A stretch of DNA of 64,000 nucleotides from Candidatus Heimdallarchaeota archaeon. Its GTDB lineage: Archaea > Asgardarchaeota > Heimdallarchaeia > Heimdallarchaeales > Heimdallarchaeaceae. Positions within the stretch are counted from its first letter, which is position 1. Each line of letters opens with the position of its first letter. Shown piece by piece: positions 1 to 20,059 of the stretch. Both the position numbers and the translations under genes were made by a program. The notes below the pieces were generated by a model that worked only from the letters and a program-made list of their open reading frames with translations, was not told the origin of the DNA and searched no databases. The stretch spans positions 32,001-96,000 of the forward strand of contig JABCTC010000003.1 in NCBI GenBank assembly GCA_018238545.1. The letters run 5' to 3'.

Positions 1-839
1 TCAATCTGCTTCATGTTCCAGATAAGTACTCTTCTTCTCGTCCTCCAGCTGTGCTGGGGATAGATTTAGGAATCAATAAACGTGCGGTAAGTGCACTCCT
101 TACACCAAAAGAAACAATCAACCGACATGAGATCAGTTTTTGGTCTGATAAGACACGAAAAAAACTACTAAAGGAAAAAGAAAGAAAAATAGCAGAACTA
201 CAGAAACTTCTAGCTAAATCTAGTTTGACTTTTGGAAAAAGAAAAGAATTTCTTTACCAACTTAAGTCACTTAGAAAAAGATAAAGAACGGAACATAAGC
301 TAACCGACCACACATATGTCAATAAAATCGTCAAGTACATTCTCTCATTAGGAAAGAGGTACGACCTCTTTGTGGTAGTAGGTTTTCCAATTCATATCCG
401 CAAAAGTCATTATCGCGGTAATCTCCGCCCCTATTCTCGTAAAAGTGTCCACAAATGGAATTACAGGAGAATGACAGAATTGCTCAAATTCAAGCTTTTT
501 CTGCATGGCTGGGAAGAGTACAGAATCCTAGCTATTGGTGAATCGTGGACCTCTTCTACCTGTTCTCGTTGTGGCTCCTATCACACTATCCGTCCTAACC
601 AACCTACATTCATCTGCAATATTTGTGGGTATCAACTTAATGCTGACTTGAATGGAGCGAAGAATATAGCTAAAAGACTGATCAAGTATGTTCTACAACC
701 AAAATATAACTCTATTAAAGATCAAGTTAGTGGAAAGTTTTTTCCTCTCAGTTCTTTTCGTGTCTTCCCTGTCCTAAGCCAATGGCTACAGACAAAGCAG
801 AGTCATCTGCTTACTCCTGGAGCTGGAGTGAGTACCTAA
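1..839 (+). pseudogene. tnpB: TnpB-family RNA-guided nuclease (IS200/IS605-type), 5' end outside the window, interrupted by an in-frame TAA at 282-284
   Basis: ORFs 51..284 and 372..839 share one frame and align colinearly with the intact copy at 28301..29779 (LGIDLG RuvC-I, ESWTS..CSRCG and C..CG Zn finger, NADLNGAKNI RuvC-III). The intact copy reads RKRQRTEH where this one reads RKR*RTEH (CAA->TAA). Confidence 0.88.
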
Positions 840-2597: not shown

Positions 2598-3872
2598 ATG
2601 ACAAAGATAAGCTCAATATTTGGAAAGAAAAAACGAAAAGAAAAGGAAGAACAGCCAAGTTTTTTCAATGGACTATACAAATTTAATCATCAAAATATAG
2701 TTAAGAACAGTCAAACCTCTGAAGAGATCTTGCTTGGCAGTGAAAAATCCGATACTTTGTTTTTAGAAACTACTACAAAATTTTCTTCGTTCGGATATGT
2801 TTTTGCTGGAAAAACAGGGATCAATATACTTTCTCAAATGAAGACACGCATAAGAGAAAACTTCCCCCCAGCACTAATTGTATCTACTTTAAATGAATTC
2901 GATAGAATTGGTGAAAAATTTCCATTTATTGAAGTTCCAAATATATCCTTAGAGGATCAAACATTCTTTCAGGGTAATCAGTGGTATCTTACAAACAAGG
3001 ACAGAGTTGAGGATAGATTAGCTCGTTTACACAAAGAAGTTTCAATTGTATTTATCTTTGTAGAAAATAATGCTTTCTTATTAGGCTTGCTTACACCCAT
3101 ACTCAAATTCTTAGAAACTACTGATGTTCAACCCGTTGTGGTTCTAAACTTACCCAATGATGAAAGTGCACTAAATGAAACTGTCAGTGCTCTTACCTTC
3201 ATTTATAATCTCATGAATAAGGAAGAATCAACAAACATTCCTTTCATCCTCTTCGATGAAAATATACTTGTGAAAGCCAATCCAACAATGAATTTGGGTG
3301 AGTTATTAACAAGATTTACTGATCGAGTAGCTAATATATTCTGTGATATAATGCTTGGTTCGTTAACTACATCAACTTTCTATCAAACAGATTTAAGCAA
3401 TTTTATTAGAATATTTGAAAATGTGAGAGGACCTTGTAAACTGGTTTCCGTTGATATTTATGATAATAAACCAAATATATCAAGTCTTCTTGAACAGAAA
3501 CAGCTCTATGGGTCAAGTTTTTCAGTGAAAAAAGATGCAACTAGAGGATTTATGATAATTCAACCAAGTAACAAAGGCCTTAGTACTAAGGAGTACAGAA
3601 ATTTTAGAGATATTTACTCCAATTTTGATGTAAACATCTCAATTCTTGAAAAGCGAAATAATGGTTCAATAATTAGAGGTATTTTTACTTATAATGAGTT
3701 ACCAAAATCATTATTAGAGCTGTATGAAAACCTCTCTGAAATCTATATTGAAATTCTAGATGATCAAAATAACGTTAGTGAATATTTTGATTTAATAAAT
3801 CTTGAAGATTTAATGAATATACAACGATACAGAATCAATGTTAGAGTTAAAGAAGAAAAAGTAAAAGAATAG
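2598..3872 (+). CDS. Divergent FtsZ/tubulin-superfamily protein lacking the GGGTG[S/T]G signature loop
   Basis: Colinear matches to FtsZ elements: FAGKTGINIL (~GVGGAGNNAV), IVFIFV...LLTPILKFL...VVVLNLP..E (~MVFITA-GGGTGTG-AAPVIAEI...VAVVTKPF.FE), FILFDENIL (~LIVIDNDKL), QTDLSNFIRIF (~NVDFADVKTIM), ATRGFMII (~ARGALVNI). Confidence 0.6.
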   Translation: MTKISSIFGKKKRKEKEEQPSFFNGLYKFNHQNIVKNSQTSEEILLGSEKSDTLFLETTTKFSSFGYVFAGKTGINILSQMKTRIRENFPPALIVSTLNEFDRIGEKFPFIEVPNISLEDQTFFQGNQWYLTNKDRVEDRLARLHKEVSIVFIFVENNAFLLGLLTPILKFLETTDVQPVVVLNLPNDESALNETVSALTFIYNLMNKEESTNIPFILFDENILVKANPTMNLGELLTRFTDRVANIFCDIMLGSLTTSTFYQTDLSNFIRIFENVRGPCKLVSVDIYDNKPNISSLLEQKQLYGSSFSVKKDATRGFMIIQPSNKGLSTKEYRNFRDIYSNFDVNISILEKRNNGSIIRGIFTYNELPKSLLELYENLSEIYIEILDDQNNVSEYFDLINLEDLMNIQRYRINVRVKEEKVKE

Positions 3873-4103: not shown

Positions 4104-7100
4104 ATGCAAGGTAAACTCCGTACAATTATAGGTATTTTAATTTTAACAATTACAGTAAGTTCATCAGTCGCAATGGGTGTATTGCTTCCTCTTCACTCTT
4201 CGAATTTAATTACCCAAATATATACAGATATGGATAATAATGCTCGGTTGACAGAGAGTGATTTCTTTCCAAATGACGGAAGCGGTAATTACTCTGAATG
4301 GATGTATACAGGTGTAGGAACAAACACTTCAAAATTTGTTGATCAAGCAGTTTTTGAATTCTTCAATATTACAGATAGAGAGGCTTACCTCGACTACAAT
4401 ACGAAAATAGCGTACTTCTTTGTGCAAGGTGAACTAGTTTTTGACATTATTATTAATAAAACAGTTTTAGAATACGACGTAGAATCTGACTATGTAGTTT
4501 ATGCTTATAGAAAACAATTTCTCTTCAATGCAGAAGACTCATCCCTAACTGGTGATGAAACTGTTTTGAATTTCAACTATCTTTGGCCATATTATATTGA
4601 ACATTTTGGAAATGGATCAGAATATGGTTTTCAGAGTTTTATAGCATCAAAACTAATTCAAGAAGAATTAATCGGTTTTAATACATCACTAGGTTATACC
4701 TTTGATGAATTAGCTTATGCAGTTATGAATAGAACATATGCTGAAGAAGAAGGTATAGTGGATTTAGGCATCTATTTGCCCCACAATTGGTTAAGTGTAA
4801 GACCTGCTTTTCCAGATCTTAACTTTGATATTGCAACAAGTTATCAGATATTGTATGATGCTATATATAATGGTCATGATTACTCATTACTAACAGGCGA
4901 AGCTGGTTCAACTAAATACTTCCTTGATTTAGTAAGAGGTCTTGATTTTGAAGGACAATATGATTTGATTGTTGATGTTGAACAACTTTTAACAGATATT
5001 TATGGAATTGATACTCCACAAGAACAAGAATACGCAAAATCCCTTGCAGCCTATATGAATTATTTACTAGGAAAGCCTTCATTGGATTGGCTTTATGAAA
5101 ATCAAATATCATATGTTTGTGAAAGAACTGCTATGGATTGGGTATTAGGTATTGAAGATCCTCTTATGGATGGAAAAAGATTCCCCTTAGTTAACAATCA
5201 ATCATTATCAAGTTCAAGTATTGATTGGGATTTAGATTTGTATTATGCAGAAAAACTTGGATCATATGATGTAAATGATGTTGGTAAAATCATAGCAATA
5301 GCTAATATTCCAGGGTATTATTATTCTCAATCTATGGAACTATTCGTGGAAGATAACCTAGCTTACGTGATAGAAGGTGGAACTGATATTAAAATAGTTA
5401 ATATGACAGATCCCTTATTCAAAGCAATCGGTCAATTCGGAGACTTCATTCTTGACACTGCTCTTCCCAATCCTTCATACGATCCTATAGGCGTTGATGG
5501 TTATATTTCAAACCTTGTTGTAGTTGATTCATATATTTATGCAGTAGAAGGTGACACTGGATTAGAAATACTCAATGCAACCGACCCAAGTGCTATTTAC
5601 GAACTTGACCAGTGGGATAATTTTGGGAATGCTGATATGCGAGATGTTGATAACGCCGTTTTTGGAACATCAACTCCTTATGATGCTCTTATAATAGCAA
5701 ATGGACAACATGGTCTAACTTATGCCAGATTGCAAACTGAAGATAGAACAGTAAGTACAGTTGTTAATTTTGCAGGGTTATCTGGAGAGGCTTATTCCGT
5801 AGATGAATACAATGATTACGCTTTCGTAGGTTTAGGAATTGATGGAATTGATGTAGTTAGTATAGATGGTCTCGACGGTACAATGGCGCTTGAATATCAT
5901 TATGATTCAATCAATTTTGCAACATTCAATAACATTCTAGATGTTAAAGCAGAAAATGGATTCCTATACGTTCTTGATGCAGTTGAGGGATTGTTAATAT
6001 TCGATATATTGTTTAATGGTACTCTTATTGAACAAGGTCAATTTGCATATGGACCTACGGAAACACCTTACATTGATGTTTATGTTGAAGGAACTAATGC
6101 CTATTTAGCACAAGGAGATTATGGTCTTGTTGTAGTAGATATCTCTAACAAACTCAGTCCTTCTGAAAATGCCAGATTTGACGGTGCTGAACACAAAGGT
6201 TTAGCATACAGCGTATATGTTGATGGAAGTGATGTTTATCTTTCAGATTATTCTCAAGGACTGGTTCATCTCAATTATGTCTCTAACACCTTTTCAATTG
6301 CTAATAAAGATCAGTTACACACTTTCGTTGAAGCTTGGCAAAGCGAGAACAATATTCAATTCAATAATTGGCTTCTAAGTGATCCTGAATTCGAAGCAAA
6401 TGAAACATATGATTCATTCGGATTATACACATTTGTTGAAAGAGGTTTCAGACAACAATGGACAGAGTATTTCCTTAGACCTTACATCTTCTCCTCATTA
6501 ACAGATACAGCTCTGTTTGTTGATAAAACAGTATTAGTTTATACCGCACAAGCTCAGATACCATATCTACAAAATGAGGAAAACAGCCTGTATTGGATGC
6601 AAGACGCTAACTTCCTCAATGAAAGTTTCCAACATGCAGGAAGATGGAGCATCCTTCATGGGGTAGAATATCAAGCAACAGATTTTGATATTACTCATTC
6701 CTTCCCTGGTACATTACGAGATGAATTCCACATGCAATTCATGTTAGTAGAACCTAAAACAGGGTCTATAATTGAACGCAAAGATAGAGTACAATATAAT
6801 ACACGAGCTATAGACTATAAAGAGGCTTATTCACTTCTCAATAAGACTACATTCGGATACGAGTGGGAAGTCCCTGGGGCTAATTACGTCAATTTACCTG
6901 TTGATCACATCTACAAGACATGGCATGTTACATATCCAGCTTTACCTGGAGATATGGCAACACTCTTCTGGCAAGAAGATGTCTACAAAGCTACAAATAA
7001 TTTCTATGAAGTGTTAAGAGAAGACTTCTTAGATAAAATCGACAATGCTGATGCTCTGAGAACATTAGGTGCTTTTGGTTCAATGTTCAGTGTTGCCGCT

Positions 7101-7163
7101 GGTTTTATTGTAGCTTCTGTTGTGCTCAATTTCATGAAGAAGAGAGCAGAAATTCCAAAATAA
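4104..7163 (+). CDS. CD36/SR-B (LIMP-2)-like two-TM glycoprotein with inserted LVIVD-repeat beta-propeller
   Basis: N- and C-terminal TM helices. CD36-like motifs FEFFNITD, YRKQFLFNAEDS...DETVLNFN, RTAMDWVLGIEDPLM, LVEPKTGSIIERKDRVQYN, LFWQE. LVIVD repeats (YIYAVEGDTGLEILNATDP; NAYLAQGDYGLVVVDISN). Many N-x-S/T sequons. Confidence 0.7.
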   Translation: MQGKLRTIIGILILTITVSSSVAMGVLLPLHSSNLITQIYTDMDNNARLTESDFFPNDGSGNYSEWMYTGVGTNTSKFVDQAVFEFFNITDREAYLDYNTKIAYFFVQGELVFDIIINKTVLEYDVESDYVVYAYRKQFLFNAEDSSLTGDETVLNFNYLWPYYIEHFGNGSEYGFQSFIASKLIQEELIGFNTSLGYTFDELAYAVMNRTYAEEEGIVDLGIYLPHNWLSVRPAFPDLNFDIATSYQILYDAIYNGHDYSLLTGEAGSTKYFLDLVRGLDFEGQYDLIVDVEQLLTDIYGIDTPQEQEYAKSLAAYMNYLLGKPSLDWLYENQISYVCERTAMDWVLGIEDPLMDGKRFPLVNNQSLSSSSIDWDLDLYYAEKLGSYDVNDVGKIIAIANIPGYYYSQSMELFVEDNLAYVIEGGTDIKIVNMTDPLFKAIGQFGDFILDTALPNPSYDPIGVDGYISNLVVVDSYIYAVEGDTGLEILNATDPSAIYELDQWDNFGNADMRDVDNAVFGTSTPYDALIIANGQHGLTYARLQTEDRTVSTVVNFAGLSGEAYSVDEYNDYAFVGLGIDGIDVVSIDGLDGTMALEYHYDSINFATFNNILDVKAENGFLYVLDAVEGLLIFDILFNGTLIEQGQFAYGPTETPYIDVYVEGTNAYLAQGDYGLVVVDISNKLSPSENARFDGAEHKGLAYSVYVDGSDVYLSDYSQGLVHLNYVSNTFSIANKDQLHTFVEAWQSENNIQFNNWLLSDPEFEANETYDSFGLYTFVERGFRQQWTEYFLRPYIFSSLTDTALFVDKTVLVYTAQAQIPYLQNEENSLYWMQDANFLNESFQHAGRWSILHGVEYQATDFDITHSFPGTLRDEFHMQFMLVEPKTGSIIERKDRVQYNTRAIDYKEAYSLLNKTTFGYEWEVPGANYVNLPVDHIYKTWHVTYPALPGDMATLFWQEDVYKATNNFYEVLREDFLDKIDNADALRTLGAFGSMFSVAAGFIVASVVLNFMKKRAEIPK
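5340..6300 (+). repeat. LVIVD repeat array (~7 blades, beta-propeller) inside the CD36-like gene
   Basis: Repeated 'V.V.g.yaYv..g..GL.ivdis' units of ~45-50 aa. Confidence 0.75.
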
Positions 7164-7354: not shown

Positions 7355-10300
7355 TTGTCTGATGATACAAGAGCAAAGAAAATGTCAGCAGCTGCATTCT
7401 TCAATGATAACAAAGCAATAGCTGGCTTTGGAAATTCAATGAGGGCAGTATTTACGAGTATCAGAGAACTTGTAGAAAATGGTTTGGATGCAGCAGAAAT
7501 AAGGGGAGTCAACCCTGTTATTTCAGTTGACTTACGTAAGCTTTCTAGCAGAGAAATTAACGATCTGCTAGATGTTACACAATATAAAAAGTTGGAAAAG
7601 CATCTTGATTTTCTGCAGTTAACTTGTAGAGATAACGGTGTTGGGGTTCCAAGTAATCAAATAGCAGATTTGTTCGGACGAGTATTAACCGGAACTAAAT
7701 ACGGTGTGATTCAGACTCGTGGTCGATTTGGTCTTGGAGCAAAAATGTGTTTACTTCACTCTATGTCTTCAGTTGATCTACCTGCTCGTATCAAAAGTCG
7801 TTATTTTATGGATGATATGACTCATGAACTACATTTAATGATAGATCTTGAAAGAAATCAACCTATCGTCATGGAACAAAGAGAATATTTATCTGGAGAT
7901 CCAAATGCGCTAGAAGAACCGGGTGTTGAGATTAGCATAACCTTTACAGGTGCTTGGAGATTAGCAAAGAATAGCGTTAAAGAATACTTCAGACAGTTAG
8001 CAATTATTACTCCTTATGCAAGTTTTGATATAAAAGTTCCTGGTGATAAGGAAGGAGAATATGAGGAATTACATTATGTGAATGTGGTAGATGATATGCC
8101 TTCCCCTCCCCAGCACGTTAAAATTCATCCTTGGGGTTGTGATATCACTCAATTCAAATCAGAATTATCTTCAACTAAAGCTAAAAAAATGAAGAAATTT
8201 CTTGCAGAACATTTTATGGGAGTAACAGAAGAAATTGCTGAAGATTTCTTCCAGTTATTGGAAATCGACCCAAACAAATCACCTTCGAATATAACTTCAA
8301 AAGAAATTCGAAGAATAGTTCACGAAGGTTTTGTTAAAGCTTATCAAGAAGCCAAGGATGTTAAGAGGAAACGAGATAGGATATTTCAGTTTGACCCACC
8401 TAGAGGAGATGCTCTTTCTCCATTAGGTGCAGGAAGATTAAGGAAAGGTCTCGAGAAAGAATTACAACCAAAATTTGTTGAAGCGGTTACAAGACCTCCT
8501 AAGGCTTATTCTGGTCATCCTTTCGCAATTGAAGCAACAATGGGTTATGGTGGGGGAGTAAATGAAGCAGCTCAAGCTAAAGGAACTACCGTCCACGACA
8601 ATAAGATAATTTACAGGTATGCTAATAGAATCCCTCTTATTTTTGGGGCTGGAAATGATGTTATCACTCAAGTCGTTTCCTCTATTCGGTGGAACGATTA
8701 TGGACTAACTAGACAGTCTGACCCTCTTGCCATCGCTGTTTCGTTAGTCAGTACAAAAATACCTTTCCCTGAGACAAGTAAAGAATATATTTCTAATGTT
8801 CCTGAAATTGAAGAAGAAATAAGATTAGCTCTGATGCAATTAGGAAGGAGACTTAAAACCTTTTTGAGCAGAGCAAAACGAAGAAAGAGAGAACATGCTC
8901 GATTATCAAGATTTGTTAAATCAGCACCAGTAATAATTGAAAATCTCACTCAAATTCTTGAAGATGAGAACCTTAAATTTACCGATTTCCGACTAGAAAC
9001 AGATCGGATTTCTGCAGCTCTCGCTCATGGTACTCCGAGGAAGGTTCGCCTTTATATGCCAATTGGAAAGCGGTTATTCGGAGCAAATATTTGGTGCCCA
9101 AATAATATTCAAACTACATTAAAGAATAACAATGTTGAGTCAGTTGCAGAATTTTTACTCAAAGATTCAAAAGAATTAGTTACAATCCTTCAATTAACAG
9201 AATCTCAAGTTTACGACATAAAATTAAGAACCATTTCTGAATTGGATAGAGACAACTTGAGTCCAAATTTTGACACAAAGACCTTAGTATCTCGTCTTGT
9301 TGAAAGAAGGTTCTCCTCCGAAGGTGAAAGAAAATTCATTTCCCTAAAAGATGCATTATTTAGGCGATGGATACAAAATGTTTACCACTATTTAGCAACG
9401 GATTTCGAAAAATTACGTAATGTCTCCGGAATGCTTGAGAAATTTTTTGAAACTAAAAAAGACGAATTACTTAATGATTATTTAGCTAAAGGAGCTAAAA
9501 CAAGTAAAAATACCATATTAACAATAGACAAAGCTATTGCTACTTACGCTAAAGCATCAGATTTAAAGAAAGAACAACTTTACCCTCCTTTTAAATATTT
9601 AAAATCTGAAACTGACAATGTTCTTGGAGAAGATTTATCGATAGAAGAATTTCTTTACCAGACTGTACAACCCACATCTATCAACTATCATCCAGAAATA
9701 ACTCGAACACTTATCGAGTATCTGAAAATTGTATTTACCCACATCAAAAACAAATTCCCTGCTTTCGCAACAACCAGTATAACAAAAATGCAACCTGATT
9801 GGACAGACGGTTATACAAAAAACGCTTTCCACAGAAGAAAGATAAAAACTGTTGGTGATTTTCTAAACCATTCTACTGATGATCTTATCGACATAAAAGA
9901 ACTGGAAAGAATAATGTATGAACAATACATTGAACTGATCACATTAAATACCAAATCTGTTCCTTTGAATGATTTCTCTTTTGTTGAGATTCAACAGCTA
10001 AAAGAAGAAGAAAACCGTATTAAGAGAGTTTTGGCTAAACACGGAATAAAAACCCTTGCTCAGTTCTTAAGTTATCCCTCTGAATCGATTTTACTTAAGA
10101 AGTTTGATACTTTAAGTGCTCTTCTGCTCAAGGAATCAAAATTCAAATTATTTACAAATTTACACGATACTAATAGAATTATTAATCAATCTTACATCAA
10201 AGTTATTCCTAAAAATGTTGAAACAGAATTAGTGAAAAATCAAATATTTACAACTTCTACCTTTTTAGCCAAATCTTCTGTAATTTTGAAGAAAATGGGC

Positions 10301-13300
10301 ATGAAGAAAAAAGATATTGAGAAAGCAAAGAAAGAACTTGGTACACCTTTACAGAATTGGGTTGATCATGATGAAATTCTCAAGAAATGTGGTATAGTAG
10401 TTTTAGAAGAATTATTCTTCAATGACGCCTCTGAATATAATCTCACAACTGAAGAAAGTAAGAAATATACTGAAAATATCATTTTCCTCCGTACGCCATT
10501 AGTTTTTGTGTTACCTGAATTAAGAAGTTCTTCTTATCTTCTTACTGAAATTGGCATCAATAATATTGGTCGTTTTTTGATATGGTCTAATACTGAACTT
10601 TCAGATATCCTTTATCTATCTGTCAATGAAATAAAAGCTCTAAAGAAGAAAATTGCCTTTCAAAAACAAATTCAATCAAAAGAAGAACTGAAGAAAGATT
10701 TAGTACTTTTTTCAAGGCACTATCCCAATTTAGTGAAATATTTTGGTAATGAAACACCATCGATTCAGGATTTGTATTATGCTTACCAATCAGAGAATTT
10801 CTCGCTTAATACAGGTTTTTGGAAGAAATTATACAAATTGAGTGAACTATCTCAACAAGAAGCTGTTGATTTAGTACATCTTTATCCAAAGAACTTCAAA
10901 GATATAGAGACGGTGAAAGATGCTCTTCTACGCTTGAAATCGAGGAATGTTGAAACTATACGTCAATTCATGGAATTACAACCAGAGATAATTGAATCAA
11001 AATTGAGTAACTCAAAGGAAAGAAAAGTTGCATTAGATCTTTATGATAAAATACTATTCAGAAGATTTGAAGGAGAACAGGAACTTCATAAACAAATACT
11101 TCTTCTTAGTGAGTATGATGAACTTCAAAGAAATTTTGGATCTCCTATCTCTAGAATCCCTGAACTTACTCTAGAGGAATTGGAAAAATTCCGAAGCCAC
11201 GATATACTAGCTGTTCATCAAATATTCGATTATACAGTTGATGAAATTGCTACTTTGCTTGGTCGTGACAAAGGCTCGGTTCAACACTTCATGGAAAGCT
11301 TTACACTCTTACGGAAAGGAACACCGTTTTTTGAGAAAGCAGATAGAAACAGATACAAATCACTTGTTTCCTTTGAATTTGAGGATTTAGAACGATTTTC
11401 TTCCATAGAGATTCAATCCCTTATTCAAGCTGGCTATGCTTCAGTTGACCAGATTTTTTACCTCACACACCCACTTACTTTTTCCTCTTCCATTCTAAAT
11501 TGGAATGTTGTAGACAAATTTAGAAAATTATTACGATCTCCACTTACATTGGTTACATGGGAAAAATCAGTTAAGTTAAAATCTTTTGATGAGGTTAAAA
11601 ATAAAGAAGTTGAGGTTGTGGATATTCAGATTTCTACATTAACTACTTCACAATTAACCGTTTTGCAGAATCAAGGCATTTCAAGAATCATCGATCTTCT
11701 TGTAAGTGAACCAGAAACGCTTTCAGAATCTCTTAACATCAGTTTGGATGAAGCTAAGATGCTTCAGAAAGATATCAGAATTATTGATACTGGAACTGAT
11801 TTAGCAGATTTAGACATCTTCAAATCAGAAATTGTTGATCAATTAGAAGAAAACAACATCTTAACTCTTGAGGATTTATATTTCTCAACTACGAAGAGTA
11901 AATGGCGAGTTAAGGAAGTTCCATGGGATATCATTATGTCATTCAAAAGTGTCCTCAACCTCCCCCTTGCACATTTGTCAGATATGTTGGATGAAGATAT
12001 TATAGTTGCATTAGAGGGCGCAAATGTTAAAACTCTATTAGGATTTATTCTTACAACTCCTGAAAGTTTAATGAATAAAACTGGTATACCTGATGAAAGA
12101 TTCGAAACAATAAAACGCGGATTGGATATCTCCGATATATTCAGTTATTTCTCACTTCCAAGTTATTTTCTTCCAAATTTAACCTTCCAGCAAACCGAAA
12201 TTCTACAAGAAAATGGCATTAAATCGGTTGCAGAATTTGTAAATAGCTCTCCACAGAAAATTAACAAACTAATCAAAGTAACTGCAAAGCAGTTTCGAGA
12301 AATCACTACGGCTTTAACCACTCAAAACCTCCAAGCTCTTTACGATGAGAAAGGTATCTTTGCTTTTGAAACAAAGCTCTTCGATAAAATGGAACAACGG
12401 CAATTGGGCAGAGATTCAATATTTGAATTTGATAGGTTTCAAACTATCCAAGAAATATACTATACGTTGAATAGAGATTTCTATTCAAATAATCAAAACC
12501 TGTGGGGAAAGGTCTCGGCAATCCAGAAAGTATTATTACTTCCTCTGCACATATTCACCGAAATTTCTGAATATGCTCTTGAGATTATGAGTCAAAACAG
12601 TATTGATTTTGTTTATCAGCTACTCTTTATTCTTGATGCAGATATTACTGATCCCTTATTATTCAGAACTGTATCAACTTATTCTTCAAAAATAATTGAG
12701 ATGAGAGCATTTCATTACTTTTCTAAGCTCCCTGCTTCTGTTTATAACTCAAGTTATTTCAAAAAAATATTGAAGGATACTGACAACAAATCTCTATCTG
12801 ATGTTATTACTGATGAGAAGATTATCAAAGATTTATCTGCTAAGGATAAACAATACCTATATGAAAATTATAACTTAACTCTCATTCGATCAATTCTAGA
12901 ATTACCTCTAAGGATTACTCCTTACTTTACAAGAATAAAGAAAGTTAGAAGAGAAGAATATAAAAATACAAAAATCGGAGATGTTTTTGATATTGATTTA
13001 GAGGAGCACTCTGCTCTGTCTTCTTTTTACTCTAGATTACTTGAAGAAAATTCTTTCAACAAATTAATCTCACAATTAACTATCCCTATATCTTCAATGG
13101 GATTACCTCGCGAACTTGCATTGAAGCTAAGCAAATCCTCTATAGGTACGTTATTAGCTTTCTATTCTACTCCTGAGAAACAAGTTTCTGAAATCTCTGG
13201 TTTCTCACAGAAGAATATTCGAGAAATAAAAGATGAATTAAAATATTCCAACATTGTTTCTATCCGAGTTTCACAAGCTCATAAAATTAAACCCTCTTCC

Positions 13301-16300
13301 TTTGCATCAGAAAAACAAATTTTTGACCTTATGGGGAGATCGATATCGGATATTGAGTCTCTCTTCTACTCCGCAGAACATTTAGGAATCTCAAAATGCC
13401 TTCCCATTGAAAATTATAAGAAAATCAAGGAAATTCTATCAGGATCTATAAGATTCATAGGATTTCTTTCATTTGATGAAATAAGGCGGTTGGAGTATCA
13501 TAATATTAATTCAATAATAGATTTTGCTCTACTCTCGAAAAAAGAACTTTTCACTATTACACAGAATCCAATTTACAAGGAATTTCATGTTCTAGATCTG
13601 ATTTCTTTTGATGAATTATCAGAAAAAAGGATTCAAGCTGCTATACCCCTCTCTCTGTGTCCCTCGATAGAAGAAGACTATTTAGATAAAATCAAAGAAA
13701 TAGGAATCAACTCTATTCAAGATTTTATCTCTAGAATGCCAGAAATTAGAGAATCTCATCCTCATTTAGTGAAATTAGATATCTTCCGCGAAGTGCAAAT
13801 GTATCTGTCCTCTGTTGCTTATATCGGACTTCCAAATGAAAGCGTTCAAAAACTGATTTACTCAGGTGTTGGCGATATTTTATCTTTCATTACTGAAGAT
13901 CCTTCAACTATCTCTCTGATTCTTGGAATAAGTGAGAAACAAGTTGAGAAATATAGCAAACTTGCTGTTCCAAGTAATTTGGTCACAGAAGTCGACAACA
14001 AAGGTGTTCTTCTCACTGAATTTTCAGCGTTATCTAAAGGAAGAAGAAATTCCTTACTTAAATCTGGTAAAGAAACAGTTCAAGATCTATTTAGTTCCCG
14101 TTATCAAGCATATTCTCAATCTAACATCTCTGATGTGTTAATGAGCGAATTTATTGAAAGTTGTAATGTGTCTTTATACAGAATTGAAGAAATTGAACCA
14201 GAAATTAAAGCTAAACTTTCAAAGAGTGAAATAACTAGGATTATTGACTTATTATGTAGTACTGATGCAGAACTAAAGAAAGCTCTTGATGGTAAACTCC
14301 CAAAAGAGTTTAAGCAAATTAGAAAAGGTCAGTTTACTTTAACAAAAGGCATTCCACTAATTTTGAATGAACCTTTGCAGGATATTATTAGAGAACTTAA
14401 TATCGAACCTTCCAACAAAAAAGTTGAGGACATGTTTGGTTTTGTACCCGAATTTCTACTTCAATTTACAGAATCTGAAAGGATTGAAAAAGACAAGAAT
14501 TTGGCTTTTCTTGAACAGATAGTTAGTTTCTTGAGTCTTAATATACTATCATTACCATTATTTAATACAACTACTAAACTAATTCTTTGGAACCGTGGAA
14601 TCCGACATGTTATAGAACTTTTATCTACTAATATGAACACAATTGATGGTATCCCATTTCAAGTAATATCAGAGGTTCGCTCTTTCCAGAAAGAATTTAG
14701 TTTAACTAGAAGCATGTCAGAGACATTGTCACCATACATTGATGATGTACTCATCTTGCCTGCAAAGAAGCAAGCTAAATTCCAGAATTATGGTCTCACT
14801 AATGCATTGTTATTTGTTGATTTTATACCTCATCCTATATTCAGTTTCACAGCAAGTGAGCAATCTATTCTCAGGATTGTTTCAAATAACATGTTCAAAC
14901 CTATAGCCTGGTTATCTTCAGATATGTCATTTAAGATAGAAGATATGAATTTACTTATTCAAAATAGAGCAATAAATATCCTTTCAGCTCTTCTTTTGTT
15001 ATCTGATCAAAATGATACTAAAGTTCTAGAAACTTTATCTAATAAATACTACAAATCGATTTCTACTTACCTAAATTCATCAATCTTACAATTTAGTGCT
15101 CCTGAATGGGCCTTGCAATTAACAGATACAAAGATAATAACTGATTCTAACAGTTTGAAGATACTAAAGAAAGATAATATCTCTTATCTTGATGAATTTT
15201 TAACACTAGAAAGCAAGTTCTTGAATAACCCTAATCTTGTAGCAGAGATTTTGCCAAAATTACTCTCCCTAAAGAGTCTCCCTATTTCCTCTATCAGTGA
15301 TCTATCACCCAGTAACATTCAAAAATTAAAACGTTCAAGAATAAATAATGTTTATGAGTTTCTTGTTTTTCCAGCTCCGTTGCTTTCAAATCTTCTGTCG
15401 ATTTCTGTTGAGAATGTTAACGCAATTAAATCTTCAATTGATCTTTCATCATTGGAAAAAACAGCTAAGCTTACAGGTTTAGATCTAGAGCTCTTCCCAG
15501 AACTTTCCCAAGATTCTAGAACAATTCTTCAAAGAAGAGGTTGCGTATCTCTGAATCAAGCATCAAAAATGGATCTAGACTTGATTCCACTTCTTTCAGA
15601 AGATAAAGCGATTCTACAAAATCTAATAGCTATGTTGTTTACTCCTACTACATTAATTGGAAAAATACTTAAATTAACAAAAAATGAAATTGATGAATTA
15701 TTGGTTCAGAACGTATGTACCTATGCAGACCTGTTGGAGCTTCCTCAAAAAACATGGCCAGCAAAAATAAGGAAGAGTCTTTCTGATAAGGATTCTGATC
15801 CAACATACCTTATCAAGAATCTACAGAACCTTGAGAAATTCGGAGTACCTATAGAAAAGTTAGATTTAGCGAAAAGTGTAACTAAATCTTTGGTAGAAGC
15901 AGGAATTGTGACAATTGATCATCTATACTATCTACCCATAGCCTATGTAAGTGCAAGAAGTAAAGTTAAACAGCATATTCTTGAAGAAATAAAGAAGAAA
16001 TTATCATATAATATTAATTTCCTTCAAGATATCTCACTTACAACTTTATCTGTTTGCTATTCAAAAGATTCATTCACGATAATTAGTTGCTTGATTTATT
16101 GGAATGGTTTATCGAAAGATGTAAGAACAGACTTAGAAGGTTCTTTAGACAGTATCAAATTAATTGAAGAAACAAGTTTTATAGAACCACTGACTCCAAC
16201 GGAAACAAAGTTAAAATCAATAGGTATTTTCTCCTTAAGATCATTCATTTTATCTCCTCAGATTAAGAAAGAAGCAGGCTTAACAACCAAACTTTTACCA

Positions 16301-19300
16301 TCTCTATTAGCAAATATTCGTTTCTTAAATCTAGATCCAAAGCAGAGTTATCGCTTGAAGAAAACAGGTTTTACAACTGTTGCTGACTTGCTTCTAAATA
16401 CATCAAAAACTATATCTGTTAAGTCTAAATTGGGCAAGAACGCAATTGATGAAGTTATCAATAACATAAAAATTGATAACCTAACCAGTTTGATTAAATC
16501 GATGGAACGAGAGCATTTACATGATGCATTTTATCTGAATTCTAACGATAAAGCATTCTTGAAATCAATAGGTGTTTATAGTTTAGCAGACTTAAACGAG
16601 TATACTGTTTTTGATTGGTTTGTTTCAAAACAAAAAATACAGAAAATCAAAAAGAAAATTAATTCCTTATTAGATACTAACATTTTGTACTATCCAGGAA
16701 TCACATCTAAGCAGTATGCAGAAGTTGTTGAACAATTCTTCATGAAGGATATATTTACAATCAAAGATCTGATGATATCAACAACAGTTGAGCAGTCAAG
16801 TGATTTAATTGAATTTTTAACCATTTTCTCTACTAACAAACCTAAAATCCAATCCCAGTATTTAACTTCTCTATCATTCTTAAAAGGGATTGAAGCCAAA
16901 GACTTGTTTAAGATTGACGTAAAAATGGAAAAATCTGCAACAATTAATGATCTTATTATAGCATTATACAAAAATTCAGCAGAATTGACCAAAAAGGGTG
17001 ATGATGTTCTTAAGCAAATCAGCTACCCCATTTCTATTTCATCGAAACTCAATCTCGATGAAGTAAATATTTTACTTAGTAAAAATATCCTCTCTTATGG
17101 AGATGTGCTTACCAAACCATCAGGTTATTGGGTAGCATTTACTCCAGTGAAACTAAAGAAGAAACTTCTTGAAATTCTTAGTACAATAACATCGAAAACT
17201 ATTAGCAATGATAGTAGTAAGGGCGTTCAATTAAGTAACATGAAAATATTTGATGCAAACCTCAAGAAACAGCTTACATCAAATTTTAAAACACTCGATG
17301 AAGTTGCTCATGCAATAAGAATAGGTGATTCTCGGATCTTAAAACCATTAGAGAGGAAAATCACTAAGGTTCTCTCTACTCCTATTTCTCTCCTTAAACT
17401 GCCAAAAATCAGCATCAAATCTTGGAAACGACTGTTATCTACAGCATCTACATTAGAAGAATTTTACTTATTAACAGATCAAGAACTTGTCAAAATATTT
17501 TCTTCTACCAAAGAAGAAATCGTAAAATTAAAAAATAATCTTGGTCCTGATAATATCGTCCTACCTCCAAGGATAAAGGAAAATAAAATCTTTACTAGTT
17601 CTGATGTTAAAGAATTGAGTGATAATAGTATTTCAAATTACATACAAATATTTGATAAATCTGCAGAAAAAGCAGATCTCAGCACTTCCTTAAAAGATAA
17701 AATTGCTTTCTACAAAGAGTTTGATGTTAAGCAACTAGATGAAAACTTAGAAGAAACTATACTCTTGAAAGATTTTGTAATTCTTGAATCTTATGCAGAT
17801 TCTCTAGAATTAAGTAGAAAACAAAAAGAATCTGTAAAGAACCTTTCTTCCTTGCTTCTATCTCGTGGTACATATTTGTCAAAGATTTTTGATATAGATT
17901 CTAATAAAGACAAAAGTGGTTTGCTCAATACAACTATAGAGTATTTCCTCTTAATTGAGAAATATCAACCTAAAATATACTCGAAAATTATTGAATCTTT
18001 ACCGGGAAATATCTCTTCACAATTCAACTCTTTACTGTCTTATCTCAATCGATCACCAATTCTCCTTTCAGGACCAAATCTAAAAAATATCAATAAAATA
18101 GTTAAACTTCCTTATGAAAATGTAAAGGACTTGCTATTATTGTCCAAGGAGAAACTTGTTCAAGAAATAGATGACACTGCAGTTCAAAGAAATATTAGAG
18201 GATTGACATTATCTATTTTGAAGAGTCTTAATTCCAAACTGACCTCTATTCCAAAAGAATTTTTGACAGCTTACGAGTTAAATCAGTTAAAGAAAGAGAA
18301 TATTTATTCCTTTGAGGAAGCTTTGGTTTTCAATAGAAAATCAACTAGTAAGAAGTCTAAGACTTGGTTACTCTCTGAGAAAGTAAGAAAAATTTCCACT
18401 ATCAACACACTCTCACTTTCTTCGTATCTCCCCTCATCTAAAATACAAGAAAGACTACTAAAACTTAAGATATCCAATGTTTATGAGCTGGTTTATTATT
18501 GCCAGAATACAGAAAAAGAAGAAGATCTGAGTCTTTGTCAAACTGTAATTCAATCTGTAAGTTCCATTAACATTGAGGAAATTGAAATAAAAGAGAGAAA
18601 AAGATTTGCTAAATTCTTTAATGACCCTGATATTCTTTCTTATTTGCGAAGCCAAGATATCAGAACTTTTGGACCTTTAGTACACTATCTAGAGCAATTA
18701 GAGGATGAAACTATTACACCTGAAATTGAGAAAATCTTATCCGTTATGCGTTTTCCAATTTCTGTTCTATCAGAAAATAAGAAACTTGTACAAAAATTAG
18801 AAAGTGAAGGTTATAACCAAGTAATTGATCTTCTTCTTCCTGCAAAAATTCAAAACAGTTTGAAAAGCAATATTACAGAGAATCAGCGGAAAGTTCTTGC
18901 GTCTTTAATCAACATGTTTTATCAAGAAATATACCAAACAATCCTAAAAAATCATTATCCAGTTTCAAAACTTACTTTGATCGATGATATTTTACAAAAA
19001 GAATTAATAAAAGCTGGATATGCAACAGTAGCTCATCTCAAATCACCTGATATAATTATTGCTGATACAAGCAAATTAAATCTGCAACAAATTTCACGTA
19101 TTGTGAGACTGTTTGATGCTTCTACCTACTACTTGTCTGAAATGCTCAAAGACTATCCACAAAGTGCTTTTGTTTTGTATAGCAATGGAATTAACACACT
19201 ATGGGACATTTTCCTTACAGGAAGTAAGGAAATATCCAAGATTACAGGTATATCTGTTCGTCAAGTAAATTCCTACTTATCAACTATCAATCCTCAAGCT

Positions 19301-20059
19301 ATGAAACTTTCGCAGAAAGATCAAATTATTCTGAAAGAAACACTTACCTACTTAACAACCGATGATGTGGGACGATTGGAACAAGATAACATCACATCTA
19401 TCCAACAATTATTGTTCCTAACAAAGGAAAACAAAACCAGTTCTTCACTCCAACGAAGTAATGTAAAGAAATTCATTCAATTACTTAGTATGCCTTTAAG
19501 TACAATAGACATACAAGAAACAGTTATTAAACAGCTGGAAGTACTCGGCATTAAATTAGTAAAAGATTTTGTTGTTTATCCAGCAGAACCTATGGCTGGC
19601 AAAGTAGACATAAGTTATGTAATGATAAAAAGAATTAAGGGAAGACTTCCTTTGGTTACAAAAAAGAAAGTAAAACAAACTGCCAAAACTTCGACCTTAA
19701 AGAAACCAACAGCTAAAAAATCTGCTACAACTAAGGGAGCTACTCCCGCTAAAAAGCGTTCTTCAACAAAGTCTAAGACCACAAAGAAAACTATAGCTCC
19801 GAAGAAATCAGCAAAAACTCAACAAAAAGCTAAACCAAAGGCTAAACCAAAGGCTAAACCAAAGGCTAAACCAAAGGCTAAACCAAAGGCTAAACCAAAG
19901 GCTAAACCAAAGGCTAAACCAAAGGCTAAACCAAAACCGAAATCCACTAAACAAATGACTTTGATGGATATTAAACCTACTTCCACAAAGAAACCATCTT
20001 CAACTTCAAAAACGAGAAAAAGCTCAAAATCCACTACTAAAAAAGGTGAAAAATCATGA
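7355..20059 (+). CDS. top6B: Giant DNA topoisomerase VI subunit B: GHKL-H2TH-transducer core (~aa 1-540) + ~3500 aa tandem HhH/RadA-NTD-like repeats + Lys/Ala/Pro-rich tail
   Basis: RELVENGLDA, DNGVGV, QTRGRFGLGAK, RYANRIPL, VSTKIPFPETSKE motifs. Upstream GAGGT SD. Directly upstream of and overlapping top6A. One continuous 12.7-kb ORF. Confidence 0.93.
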   Translation: MSDDTRAKKMSAAAFFNDNKAIAGFGNSMRAVFTSIRELVENGLDAAEIRGVNPVISVDLRKLSSREINDLLDVTQYKKLEKHLDFLQLTCRDNGVGVPSNQIADLFGRVLTGTKYGVIQTRGRFGLGAKMCLLHSMSSVDLPARIKSRYFMDDMTHELHLMIDLERNQPIVMEQREYLSGDPNALEEPGVEISITFTGAWRLAKNSVKEYFRQLAIITPYASFDIKVPGDKEGEYEELHYVNVVDDMPSPPQHVKIHPWGCDITQFKSELSSTKAKKMKKFLAEHFMGVTEEIAEDFFQLLEIDPNKSPSNITSKEIRRIVHEGFVKAYQEAKDVKRKRDRIFQFDPPRGDALSPLGAGRLRKGLEKELQPKFVEAVTRPPKAYSGHPFAIEATMGYGGGVNEAAQAKGTTVHDNKIIYRYANRIPLIFGAGNDVITQVVSSIRWNDYGLTRQSDPLAIAVSLVSTKIPFPETSKEYISNVPEIEEEIRLALMQLGRRLKTFLSRAKRRKREHARLSRFVKSAPVIIENLTQILEDENLKFTDFRLETDRISAALAHGTPRKVRLYMPIGKRLFGANIWCPNNIQTTLKNNNVESVAEFLLKDSKELVTILQLTESQVYDIKLRTISELDRDNLSPNFDTKTLVSRLVERRFSSEGERKFISLKDALFRRWIQNVYHYLATDFEKLRNVSGMLEKFFETKKDELLNDYLAKGAKTSKNTILTIDKAIATYAKASDLKKEQLYPPFKYLKSETDNVLGEDLSIEEFLYQTVQPTSINYHPEITRTLIEYLKIVFTHIKNKFPAFATTSITKMQPDWTDGYTKNAFHRRKIKTVGDFLNHSTDDLIDIKELERIMYEQYIELITLNTKSVPLNDFSFVEIQQLKEEENRIKRVLAKHGIKTLAQFLSYPSESILLKKFDTLSALLLKESKFKLFTNLHDTNRIINQSYIKVIPKNVETELVKNQIFTTSTFLAKSSVILKKMGMKKKDIEKAKKELGTPLQNWVDHDEILKKCGIVVLEELFFNDASEYNLTTEESKKYTENIIFLRTPLVFVLPELRSSSYLLTEIGINNIGRFLIWSNTELSDILYLSVNEIKALKKKIAFQKQIQSKEELKKDLVLFSRHYPNLVKYFGNETPSIQDLYYAYQSENFSLNTGFWKKLYKLSELSQQEAVDLVHLYPKNFKDIETVKDALLRLKSRNVETIRQFMELQPEIIESKLSNSKERKVALDLYDKILFRRFEGEQELHKQILLLSEYDELQRNFGSPISRIPELTLEELEKFRSHDILAVHQIFDYTVDEIATLLGRDKGSVQHFMESFTLLRKGTPFFEKADRNRYKSLVSFEFEDLERFSSIEIQSLIQAGYASVDQIFYLTHPLTFSSSILNWNVVDKFRKLLRSPLTLVTWEKSVKLKSFDEVKNKEVEVVDIQISTLTTSQLTVLQNQGISRIIDLLVSEPETLSESLNISLDEAKMLQKDIRIIDTGTDLADLDIFKSEIVDQLEENNILTLEDLYFSTTKSKWRVKEVPWDIIMSFKSVLNLPLAHLSDMLDEDIIVALEGANVKTLLGFILTTPESLMNKTGIPDERFETIKRGLDISDIFSYFSLPSYFLPNLTFQQTEILQENGIKSVAEFVNSSPQKINKLIKVTAKQFREITTALTTQNLQALYDEKGIFAFETKLFDKMEQRQLGRDSIFEFDRFQTIQEIYYTLNRDFYSNNQNLWGKVSAIQKVLLLPLHIFTEISEYALEIMSQNSIDFVYQLLFILDADITDPLLFRTVSTYSSKIIEMRAFHYFSKLPASVYNSSYFKKILKDTDNKSLSDVITDEKIIKDLSAKDKQYLYENYNLTLIRSILELPLRITPYFTRIKKVRREEYKNTKIGDVFDIDLEEHSALSSFYSRLLEENSFNKLISQLTIPISSMGLPRELALKLSKSSIGTLLAFYSTPEKQVSEISGFSQKNIREIKDELKYSNIVSIRVSQAHKIKPSSFASEKQIFDLMGRSISDIESLFYSAEHLGISKCLPIENYKKIKEILSGSIRFIGFLSFDEIRRLEYHNINSIIDFALLSKKELFTITQNPIYKEFHVLDLISFDELSEKRIQAAIPLSLCPSIEEDYLDKIKEIGINSIQDFISRMPEIRESHPHLVKLDIFREVQMYLSSVAYIGLPNESVQKLIYSGVGDILSFITEDPSTISLILGISEKQVEKYSKLAVPSNLVTEVDNKGVLLTEFSALSKGRRNSLLKSGKETVQDLFSSRYQAYSQSNISDVLMSEFIESCNVSLYRIEEIEPEIKAKLSKSEITRIIDLLCSTDAELKKALDGKLPKEFKQIRKGQFTLTKGIPLILNEPLQDIIRELNIEPSNKKVEDMFGFVPEFLLQFTESERIEKDKNLAFLEQIVSFLSLNILSLPLFNTTTKLILWNRGIRHVIELLSTNMNTIDGIPFQVISEVRSFQKEFSLTRSMSETLSPYIDDVLILPAKKQAKFQNYGLTNALLFVDFIPHPIFSFTASEQSILRIVSNNMFKPIAWLSSDMSFKIEDMNLLIQNRAINILSALLLLSDQNDTKVLETLSNKYYKSISTYLNSSILQFSAPEWALQLTDTKIITDSNSLKILKKDNISYLDEFLTLESKFLNNPNLVAEILPKLLSLKSLPISSISDLSPSNIQKLKRSRINNVYEFLVFPAPLLSNLLSISVENVNAIKSSIDLSSLEKTAKLTGLDLELFPELSQDSRTILQRRGCVSLNQASKMDLDLIPLLSEDKAILQNLIAMLFTPTTLIGKILKLTKNEIDELLVQNVCTYADLLELPQKTWPAKIRKSLSDKDSDPTYLIKNLQNLEKFGVPIEKLDLAKSVTKSLVEAGIVTIDHLYYLPIAYVSARSKVKQHILEEIKKKLSYNINFLQDISLTTLSVCYSKDSFTIISCLIYWNGLSKDVRTDLEGSLDSIKLIEETSFIEPLTPTETKLKSIGIFSLRSFILSPQIKKEAGLTTKLLPSLLANIRFLNLDPKQSYRLKKTGFTTVADLLLNTSKTISVKSKLGKNAIDEVINNIKIDNLTSLIKSMEREHLHDAFYLNSNDKAFLKSIGVYSLADLNEYTVFDWFVSKQKIQKIKKKINSLLDTNILYYPGITSKQYAEVVEQFFMKDIFTIKDLMISTTVEQSSDLIEFLTIFSTNKPKIQSQYLTSLSFLKGIEAKDLFKIDVKMEKSATINDLIIALYKNSAELTKKGDDVLKQISYPISISSKLNLDEVNILLSKNILSYGDVLTKPSGYWVAFTPVKLKKKLLEILSTITSKTISNDSSKGVQLSNMKIFDANLKKQLTSNFKTLDEVAHAIRIGDSRILKPLERKITKVLSTPISLLKLPKISIKSWKRLLSTASTLEEFYLLTDQELVKIFSSTKEEIVKLKNNLGPDNIVLPPRIKENKIFTSSDVKELSDNSISNYIQIFDKSAEKADLSTSLKDKIAFYKEFDVKQLDENLEETILLKDFVILESYADSLELSRKQKESVKNLSSLLLSRGTYLSKIFDIDSNKDKSGLLNTTIEYFLLIEKYQPKIYSKIIESLPGNISSQFNSLLSYLNRSPILLSGPNLKNINKIVKLPYENVKDLLLLSKEKLVQEIDDTAVQRNIRGLTLSILKSLNSKLTSIPKEFLTAYELNQLKKENIYSFEEALVFNRKSTSKKSKTWLLSEKVRKISTINTLSLSSYLPSSKIQERLLKLKISNVYELVYYCQNTEKEEDLSLCQTVIQSVSSINIEEIEIKERKRFAKFFNDPDILSYLRSQDIRTFGPLVHYLEQLEDETITPEIEKILSVMRFPISVLSENKKLVQKLESEGYNQVIDLLLPAKIQNSLKSNITENQRKVLASLINMFYQEIYQTILKNHYPVSKLTLIDDILQKELIKAGYATVAHLKSPDIIIADTSKLNLQQISRIVRLFDASTYYLSEMLKDYPQSAFVLYSNGINTLWDIFLTGSKEISKITGISVRQVNSYLSTINPQAMKLSQKDQIILKETLTYLTTDDVGRLEQDNITSIQQLLFLTKENKTSSSLQRSNVKKFIQLLSMPLSTIDIQETVIKQLEVLGIKLVKDFVVYPAEPMAGKVDISYVMIKRIKGRLPLVTKKKVKQTAKTSTLKKPTAKKSATTKGATPAKKRSSTKSKTTKKTIAPKKSAKTQQKAKPKAKPKAKPKAKPKAKPKAKPKAKPKAKPKAKPKPKSTKQMTLMDIKPTSTKKPSSTSKTRKSSKSTTKKGEKS
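9050..19650 (+). repeat. Degenerate protein-level tandem repeat (~55-60 aa helical units resembling RadA N-terminal/HhH domains)
   Basis: Recurring consensus 'P-I-x-x-L-x-x-L-[ST]-x5-L-x3-[GN]-I-x-[ST]-[IV]-x-[DE]-[LF]-L-x5-[EL]-x3-L-x-I-S' e.g. SPISRIPELTLEELEKFRSHDILAVHQIF, LPISSISDLSPSNIQKLKRSRINNVYEFL, MPLSTIDIQETVIKQLEVLGIKLVKDFV. Confidence 0.75.
19829..19936 (+). repeat. 12-bp tandem repeat GCTAAACCAAAG x9 encoding (AKPK)9
   Basis: Eight perfect units plus a final GCTAAACCAAAA, read directly. Confidence 0.97.

Follow-up and report, generated by a model that had tools for sequence, protein, structure and literature searches.

The A* gene and its predicted fold

The window analysed here, a stretch of 64,000 nt from an assembly of a Candidatus Heimdallarchaeota archaeon (GCA_018238545.1, contig JABCTC010000003.1, positions 32,001 to 96,000), carries near its start a gene for a 424-amino-acid protein that was predicted to have the fold of the tubulin/FtsZ superfamily and that lacks the canonical GTP loops. 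The gene occupies positions 2598-3872 of the plus strand; its open reading frame starts with ATG, comprises 424 codons and contains no internal stop. A pyruvate kinase gene (PK) is located upstream at 1076-2515 and a gene for a large membrane or surface protein directly downstream at 4104-7163, both transcribed in the same direction. The target protein is called A* throughout, its intact long paralog A, the short paralog B and the membrane protein associated with them M; f1 is the family of the target within one Asgard order, and f2, f3 and f4 are sister families of that order.

Strong matches to A* were found in 24 of the 27 sampled f1 genomes. The homologs occur only in metagenome-assembled genomes of Heimdall-group Asgard archaea, and every one of them is named 'hypothetical protein'. 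Where an f1 genome has a full-length match the frame is nearly always open; one genome shows a single in-frame TAA. Over the whole gene dN/dS was 0.14-0.30 (Nei-Gojobori, unsaturated pairs), and 47 columns were invariant across the members of a 20-sequence alignment in which identity falls to 37%. The A* gene is a working gene under purifying selection. The loss of the catalytic motifs of the family, described below, could be taken to indicate a decaying and functionless duplicate; the open frames, the selection and conservation data and a confident fold prediction refute this explanation in practice, and we regard it as extremely improbable.

Searches of Pfam and NCBIfam with A* yielded no meaningful match: the Pfam Tubulin family (PF00091) was absent even at E 1, and its gathering score was not reached. 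Sequence searches of the PDB, performed with the A* sequence and with a profile of its family (phmmer/hmmsearch), gave nothing meaningful either.

An AlphaFold2 model of A* built on 20 homologs reached pLDDT 87 and pTM 0.88 and was disordered only at residues 1-17 and 421-424. Foldseek against the PDB returned at least 500 matches at E <= 0.001 with this model, and the best 50 were all TubZ, FtsZ or CetZ (TubZ 4ei7, E 2.6e-17; FtsZ and CetZ, E 1e-15 to 1e-14; probability 1.00). A second structural search, with VIA-align against 48,161 chains, placed CetZ 3zid_B first (Z 27.4, 306 residues aligned, rmsd 3.2), with TubZ 4ei7_A at Z 26.6, FtsZ 2vaw at Z 23.0, and BtubA, Asgard AtubA/B, eukaryotic alpha-, beta- and gamma-tubulin and OdinTubulin at Z 22-23. 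In a language-model look-up A* fell among tubulin/TubZ clusters.

The first-pass annotation, made from the letters of the DNA, had recognised an FtsZ/tubulin fold and had named as its alternative a different Rossmann-like fold with no tubulin C-terminal domain. The structural alignments span model residues 62 to about 401 and so cover both domains, with Z values of 27 to 22 for CetZ, TubZ, FtsZ and tubulin, and unrelated Rossmann folds gave Z 9 or less. [quoted passage not shown] The last of these corresponds to positions 3429-3689 (plus strand), carries the motifs GPCxLxSxDIYD, TRGF..IQP and IRGI, and has 21 invariant columns of 88; its residues R316, D344 and G361 are invariant in intact A as well.

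The S1 strand begins at residue 65 of A*, which confirms an N-terminal extension of about 60 amino acids, as had been annotated. Its conserved core (residues 20-57; positions 2655-2768, plus strand) is specific to the family, with 9 of 44 columns invariant; residues 20-60 were modelled at pLDDT 88-92. The extension could not be aligned to that of intact A, the hhalign alignment beginning at residue 50. The first residues form a hydrophobic-then-polybasic motif (MTKISSIFGKKKRK; positions 2598-2639, plus strand; family consensus MSxIxSIFGKKKK), a candidate membrane- or partner-binding tag for which the model shows disorder (pLDDT under 50). B (MSWLKRKLFKKK) and intact A begin with motifs of a similar kind. 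The basic character that had been proposed for this N-terminus was found again and is conserved (net charge +6 in 14 residues). Its possible amphipathicity was not supported: the helical hydrophobic moment of the A* N-terminus was not above that of shuffled sequences (fraction of shuffles at or above the observed value, 0.47-0.65), nor was that of the B N-terminus, and for this reason the A* N-terminus is described here as a hydrophobic-plus-polybasic motif and not as an amphipathic helix.

The former nucleotide site and the conserved T7-H8 face

The register of the superfamily motifs was set by aligning A* with the FtsZ of its own genome, with intact A and with B, and was confirmed by profile-profile alignment. 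The equivalent of the T1 loop (2802-2825, plus strand) is degenerate in these alignments, reading FAGKTGIN against GVGGAG. At the T4 signature loop (3063-3086, plus strand; residues 156-163) ENNAFLLG replaces GGGTG[ST]G; the counterpart is GLGKGTGTG in the genome's own FtsZ and GxGGTGxG in the sister family, and the consensus of the A* family is ..N..F.lG. The T6/H6 equivalent (3252-3281, plus strand) reads FDENILVKAN, aligned with FDNEKLL in B and VPNEKLL in FtsZ, and its residues D220 and N228 are invariant or nearly so.

The T7 loop together with helix H8 (FYQTDLSNFIRIF; 3378-3416, plus strand) is the best-conserved stretch of the protein, with 9 of 21 columns invariant; its counterparts in the alignments are NVDFAD in FtsZ and DLNEF in intact A. 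In YQTDLSNF, the T7 sequence of A*, compared with NVDFADT, the first Asp (D265) is retained and invariant, and the position of the catalytic Asp or Glu is taken by Asn268, which is invariant in the 20-sequence alignment.

The motifs expected of a functional GTPase, namely GGxG in T1, GGGTG[ST]G in T4 and the catalytic acid of T7 (NxDxx[DE]), are thus all lacking in A*. The replacement of the T4 loop by ENNAFLLG and the retention of a single Asp in T7 had both been read from the sequence by the first-pass annotation, the former at exactly these coordinates, and its proposal of a candidate pseudo-GTPase with the tubulin/FtsZ fold is supported by the fold search, by the hhalign match to a sister family that bears the GTP loops (see below) and by the motif comparison. 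From these motifs we infer that A* probably does not bind nucleotide.

Invariant columns are unevenly distributed along A*. They make up 43% of the T7-H8 stretch, 24% of the C-terminal domain and 20% of the N-terminal extension, and 0-5% of every segment of the former nucleotide-binding half. In intact A it is the T1 and T4 glycines, some prolines near S5/T5 and the catalytic T7 Glu that are invariant. In the protofilaments of the tubulin family, as is well established and also stated for Asgard tubulins (PMC13371889), each subunit inserts its T7-H8 face into the nucleotide face of the following one. Since T7-H8 is conserved in A* and its own pocket is not, A* appears to have kept the face that touches a partner's nucleotide and to have given up its own nucleotide face.

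The remains of the pocket could also be interpreted as a remodelled site that still binds nucleotide or another small ligand, A* then being atypical for the superfamily but still active. T1 retains a GxxG remnant (FAGKTG), D220 and N228 near T6/H6 are conserved, and the whole former GTPase domain is under purifying selection (dN/dS 0.17-0.42, same method). However, the T4 glycine-threonine signature is missing from all of the 17-20 aligned members, Pfam Tubulin finds no match, and the region from T1 to T5 is almost devoid of invariant columns exactly where the intact sister family has its invariant glycines. We consider a remodelled, ligand-binding pocket improbable.

Relatives of A* and the PK-A-M-B module

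An exhaustive phmmer search with A* against 1.8 billion representatives yielded 33 proteins. The strong matches are A*'s own family; the weak ones, at E 1e-15 to 1e-5 and 19-26% identity, make up intact A, a sister family of comparable length, which retains GxGGAG in T1, GxGGTGxG in T4 and a tubulin-like DLNEF in T7. The two families were aligned by hhalign over 365 columns (probability 99.9%, E 7.8e-34). Intact A and B scored 30-41 bits against Pfam Tubulin, several of them above the 33-bit cut-off, and by this indirect route, through intact A, the A* sequence appears homologous to accepted members of the tubulin/FtsZ superfamily.

The genome from which the window comes, 92% complete, contains three tubulin-superfamily genes only: A*, B and a single FtsZ located on another contig (L001:1285-2469, plus strand; contig C49). 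In this canonical FtsZ T4 reads GLGKGTGTG, Lys replacing the third Gly of most FtsZ proteins; it also carries an acidic N-terminal extension of about 60 amino acids. B is a 380-amino-acid protein with intact motifs (GIGNAG; GSGGGTGSAG; NAGLNDF at T7), encoded on the opposite strand 4.7 kb upstream of A*, on the same contig and just beyond the window.

Quick maximum-likelihood trees recovered the A* clade (SH-aLRT 100) and the B clade (95-100) and left the backbone without resolution. By BLAST, A* matched intact A with 50-88 bits; against B there were two weak matches of 42-44 bits and otherwise almost none. Each genome has one B ortholog and one further paralog, and A* and A share a long architecture with N- and C-terminal extensions. 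It is on gene content, synteny with PK, this long architecture and the pairwise scores, and not on the tree, that A* is taken to be the ortholog of A.

The genomes of the order were searched with B and with the two family alignments, and the loci found were then read. In f2 and f4, all ten loci with a contig spanning the three genes showed a tight same-strand operon A-M-B, in which A is long and has intact GTP motifs, M is a polytopic protein of 390-466 amino acids and B has about 390 amino acids. Four further loci outside f1, including the sole f3 locus, end at a contig edge and show one or two of the module genes. PK adjoins A in these families wherever the contig reaches that side. The pyruvate kinase encoded in the window (Pfam PK, E 2.6e-105) is a conserved neighbour of A in all four families, adjoining A or A* in nearly every locus that reaches that side. 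Outside the order, 300 sampled genomes of the phylum showed nothing comparable, giving weak FtsZ-type N-domain matches only. The module is confined to this Asgard order (Heimdallarchaeales-like), and the loss of the pocket in A is confined to f1.

A different layout was seen in the f1 loci examined: PK, A* and a large surface protein are encoded on one strand, and M followed by B on the other, divergent and 2-5 kb away where both parts were found on one contig. The same split was found in G074, the complete genome of another f1 genus. B was present in 28 of 29 f1 genomes. Near the left end of the window, remnants of a TnpB/Cas12f-like gene (3-284 and 372-839, plus strand; Pfam Cas12f1-like_TNB 6.8e-14, a zinc ribbon, and a weak OrfB_IS605 match) mark a dead TnpB-type insertion that widens the gap between M-B and PK-A*; it is missing from the same interval in G074.

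The M gene of this genome lies about 750 nt before the start of the window (L070:7891-9252, minus strand, corresponding to 29891-31252 of contig C62) and encodes 453 amino acids. M has no Pfam family. The M proteins of f1 and f2 share 26% identity over 418 residues (E 4e-34) and are orthologs. Conserved features of M are the cytoplasmic motifs NTKIYD..., DTPG.SI..L..IP and KFK.KAL.ELD and an acidic-aromatic N-terminal peptide, F-x-F-E-[DE]-[FL]. The model of M is all-helical with pLDDT 72. Insect gustatory and odorant receptors, which have a seven-transmembrane (7-TM) ion-channel fold, ranked first with both VIA-align and Foldseek, though weakly (Z 10.6-11.3, rmsd about 6 Å; Foldseek E 0.06, TM 0.37-0.42). 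M possibly has this fold, a likeness that for an all-helical model of such pLDDT stays below the level of an established one.

Immediately downstream of B in this genome is a gene (L070:5767-6696, minus strand) whose product combines a double zinc ribbon with a multi-pass membrane region at its C-terminus, and in G074 a gene nearby (L066:11767-12720, plus strand) opens with a similar zinc-ribbon motif. This protein may be a further, f1-specific companion of M and B.

On the other side of A*, the 1019-amino-acid protein has an N-terminal hydrophobic segment, a match to the LVIVD repeat and a weak one to the CD36 family (E 2e-4). In G074 this position is taken by a gene for 976 amino acids whose N-terminus is hydrophobic in a similar way; the likeness of the two is one of position and N-terminus. 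The spacer between PK and A* (2516-2597, 82 nt) contains, as read by eye, T-runs (TTTTTCTTTTT) directly after the PK stop codon and, some 30-40 nt ahead of the start of A*, a box rich in A and T. These features suggest that A* is transcribed from its own promoter.

Further downstream, the window contains a gene for a 4234-amino-acid Topo VI B subunit (7355-20059, plus strand), in which the first 515 residues hold HATPase_c and transducer domains and HhH/RAD51D_N-like repeats extend over the roughly 3700 residues that come next; this giant gene is followed by Top6A (20056-21465, plus strand).

The layout of the f1 loci bears on an alternative in which A*, having lost GTP binding, has been neofunctionalised as a stand-alone scaffold uncoupled from M and B, either a nucleotide-independent polymer or an adaptor. 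The partner bound by its conserved N-terminal extension and C-terminal domain would then be a new one, for example the surface/CD36-like protein encoded downstream. Every f1 locus examined has a split operon, the order PK-A*-large surface protein is kept in two genera, the T-runs between PK and A* suggest a transcription unit of its own, and the conserved N-terminal extension is new and cannot be aligned to that of intact A; the branch leading to A* is moreover long (see below). Against it, M and B are still found within 2-5 kb of A*, although divergent, in the f1 contigs that carry both parts, A* and B co-occur throughout f1, and the part of A* that is conserved best is the T7-H8 face, known to contact the nucleotide face of another subunit. 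A stand-alone scaffold is therefore, in our judgement, rather unlikely, and less improbable than a remodelled pocket.

The f4 genomes offered a second case. There, T4 of B reads SSDGFSTAF or SSGTFSSGV, the signature being lost (loci L069:6129-7307, plus strand, and L080:1737-2915, minus strand), and in one B the catalytic residue of T7 is replaced by Asn; the A proteins of f4 are only semi-degenerate (GAGSTGVG, GSDSIGVG). This looks like an independent decay of the nucleotide site in the other subunit. Since B lost T4 in f4 and A lost its pocket in f1, the system evidently tolerates one dead subunit in either position.

Proposed role and comparison with known systems

Within the tubulin/FtsZ superfamily, A* is a conserved candidate pseudo-GTPase and forms part of a membrane module with two tubulin-like proteins that is specific to the order and appears to be undescribed. 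As to its role, we favour, with modest confidence, the reading that A* is the pocket-dead subunit of a module of two tubulins and a membrane protein, and that it docks through its T7 face on GTP-bound B at the membrane without triggering hydrolysis. The first-pass annotation had suggested a nucleotide-free filament cap, a regulator or a membrane adaptor; a linked GTP-competent paralog and a dedicated membrane protein fit such roles. The partner gene and the history of the operon, which hold most of the functional information, had escaped that annotation, and the eukaryotic Misato/Dml1 proteins that it cited serve as an analogy.

In the ancestral state A, M and B would have been co-transcribed beside PK, and both A and B would have bound GTP. 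A would then have lost T1, T4 and the catalytic T7 residue in f1, B remaining GTP-competent. The T7-H8/C-domain ('bottom' longitudinal) face of A* could dock on the GTP-bearing 'top' face of B and, with Asn268 in place of the catalytic acid, docking would not stimulate hydrolysis. The top face of A* would offer no nucleotide, so that the filament would be ended or interrupted and the assembly, capped or alternating, might be less dynamic. A* would be a cap or an obligate heterodimer partner, in loose analogy to beta-tubulin, whose Lys spares the alpha-tubulin GTP. M and the basic N-termini of A* and B would jointly place the assembly at the membrane. A precedent for such a tether is OdinFtsZ1, which is attached directly to liposomes by its N-terminal 13 residues (PMC12583498).

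The contact between A* and B, its orientation and the association with the membrane are what we infer, and several observations weigh against docking of A* on B at the membrane. The split of the f1 operon places A* between PK and a large surface protein, and may mean regulation apart from M and B and a new partner. The stem branch of A* is very long (1.4-1.6 substitutions per site), as expected for neofunctionalisation, and the AU test did not reject a clade of A* with B (p 0.376), so that the tree cannot separate descent of A* from A or from B. A few A* members of genus g3 have Asp at the catalytic T7 position. Finally, the amphipathic N-terminal helix is not demonstrably present in A*, a hydrophobic-plus-polybasic motif standing in its place.

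Among the papers that could be searched none was found on the A* family or on the PK-A-M-B module, and A* was compared with the systems nearest to it. Its best structural matches are CetZ and TubZ, and its sequence places it in no named family. The CetZ structures 3zid and 4b45 match best and align across the two domains, at Z 27.4 and 26.6 (306-309 residues, rmsd 2.9-3.2, 14-16% identity), and CetZ proteins are likewise archaeal and membrane-associated, being cell-shape proteins and not the division FtsZ. Unlike A*, however, CetZ binds GTP and carries canonical T1, T4 and T7 loops, and it has neither the 60-amino-acid N-terminal extension nor the PK-A-M-B context; the resemblance is structural, with no sequence-level match in the PDB searches.

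A parallel in organisation is found in the alpha/beta-tubulin-type heterodimers, which are known from Heimdall-group archaea too and include the Asgard AtubA/B and Heim-alpha/beta (PMC13371889, PMC13394414), and in which two paralogs are linked, one of them has a non-catalytic T7 residue and the GTP of its partner is spared. In the Asgard and eukaryotic tubulin pairs a non-catalytic Lys in place of the T7 Glu defines the beta-like subunit (PMC13371889). Those proteins are true tubulins whose genes lie next to each other, and each subunit of the pair binds nucleotide, whereas A* is without the pocket motifs. The identity of A* to 9f6v_D, 7evg_A and eukaryotic tubulins is 8-10%, at Z 22-23, below CetZ and TubZ, and the genome of the window contains no Pfam-level tubulin beyond FtsZ and B. 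With this low identity and no true tubulins in the genome, we rejected the identification of A* as the published Heimdallarchaeales alpha/beta-tubulin or as AtubA/B.

Nmar_1262, the thaumarchaeal FtsZ-like protein of Nitrosopumilus, is also archaeal and without GGGTGTG; it has AGKAGSA instead, and did not form filaments when expressed in yeast (PMC3684127). It lacks the T7 loop too, and no paired GTP-competent paralog has been described for it, in contrast to the conserved T7-H8 and linked partner of A*.

FtsZl1 resembles A* as a divergent tubulin-superfamily protein encoded in neighbourhoods rich in membrane proteins, with a predicted part in membrane remodelling (Makarova and Koonin 2010, PMC2875224). 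FtsZl1 proteins (PF13809, Tubulin_2) have a coiled-coil C-terminal tail, no recognisable T6-H7 or C-terminal domain, and vWA neighbours (PMC2875224). A* was rejected as a member, as its C-terminal domain is modelled in full and the genes around it encode PK, M and B but no vWA protein; Tubulin_2 matches were below threshold and were obtained for intact A only. Another divergent tubulin-superfamily protein is Asg.Tub, a CetZ-like group of Heimdallarchaeia and Lokiarchaeia for which neighbours are unknown and neither a loss of the GTP site nor such an operon was reported (Santana-Molina et al., PMC9871819).

The Asg.Tub group may overlap with A or B. Among eukaryotic proteins, a precedent besides Nmar_1262 is the FtsZ-like domain of ARC3, from plant chloroplasts, which is not known to carry GTPase motifs. 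ARC3 is a chimera that also contains MORN repeats, and it is evolutionarily unrelated to the A* family. It regulates true FtsZ, inhibiting its assembly rather than forming the ring (PMC12232670, 10.1101/2024.01.08.574726).

The tubulin family is defined by GTP-driven assembly, and conserved members without nucleotide are rare and poorly understood. In the present case the loss of the pocket can be dated to one family, an ancestor-like intact form survives in sister families, the partner that is GTP-competent has been identified together with a dedicated membrane protein, and in a second family the site has apparently been lost from the other subunit. Such a system is a natural experiment on how heteromeric tubulin-like systems, alpha/beta-tubulin for example, partition nucleotide binding and catalysis, and A* and B, which are small and look soluble, should be amenable to biochemical assay.

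More tentatively, and as something we hold to be possible and not probable, an alpha/beta-like division of labour may have arisen here independently of true tubulins, in a membrane-bound A-B heteromer with M in which one nucleotide site is dispensable and was lost in A (f1) or in B (f4). If this is true, A* would supply one structural half, obligate and free of nucleotide, of a new machine of cytoskeleton and membrane in the Heimdall-group Asgard archaea, the prokaryotes closest to eukaryotes.

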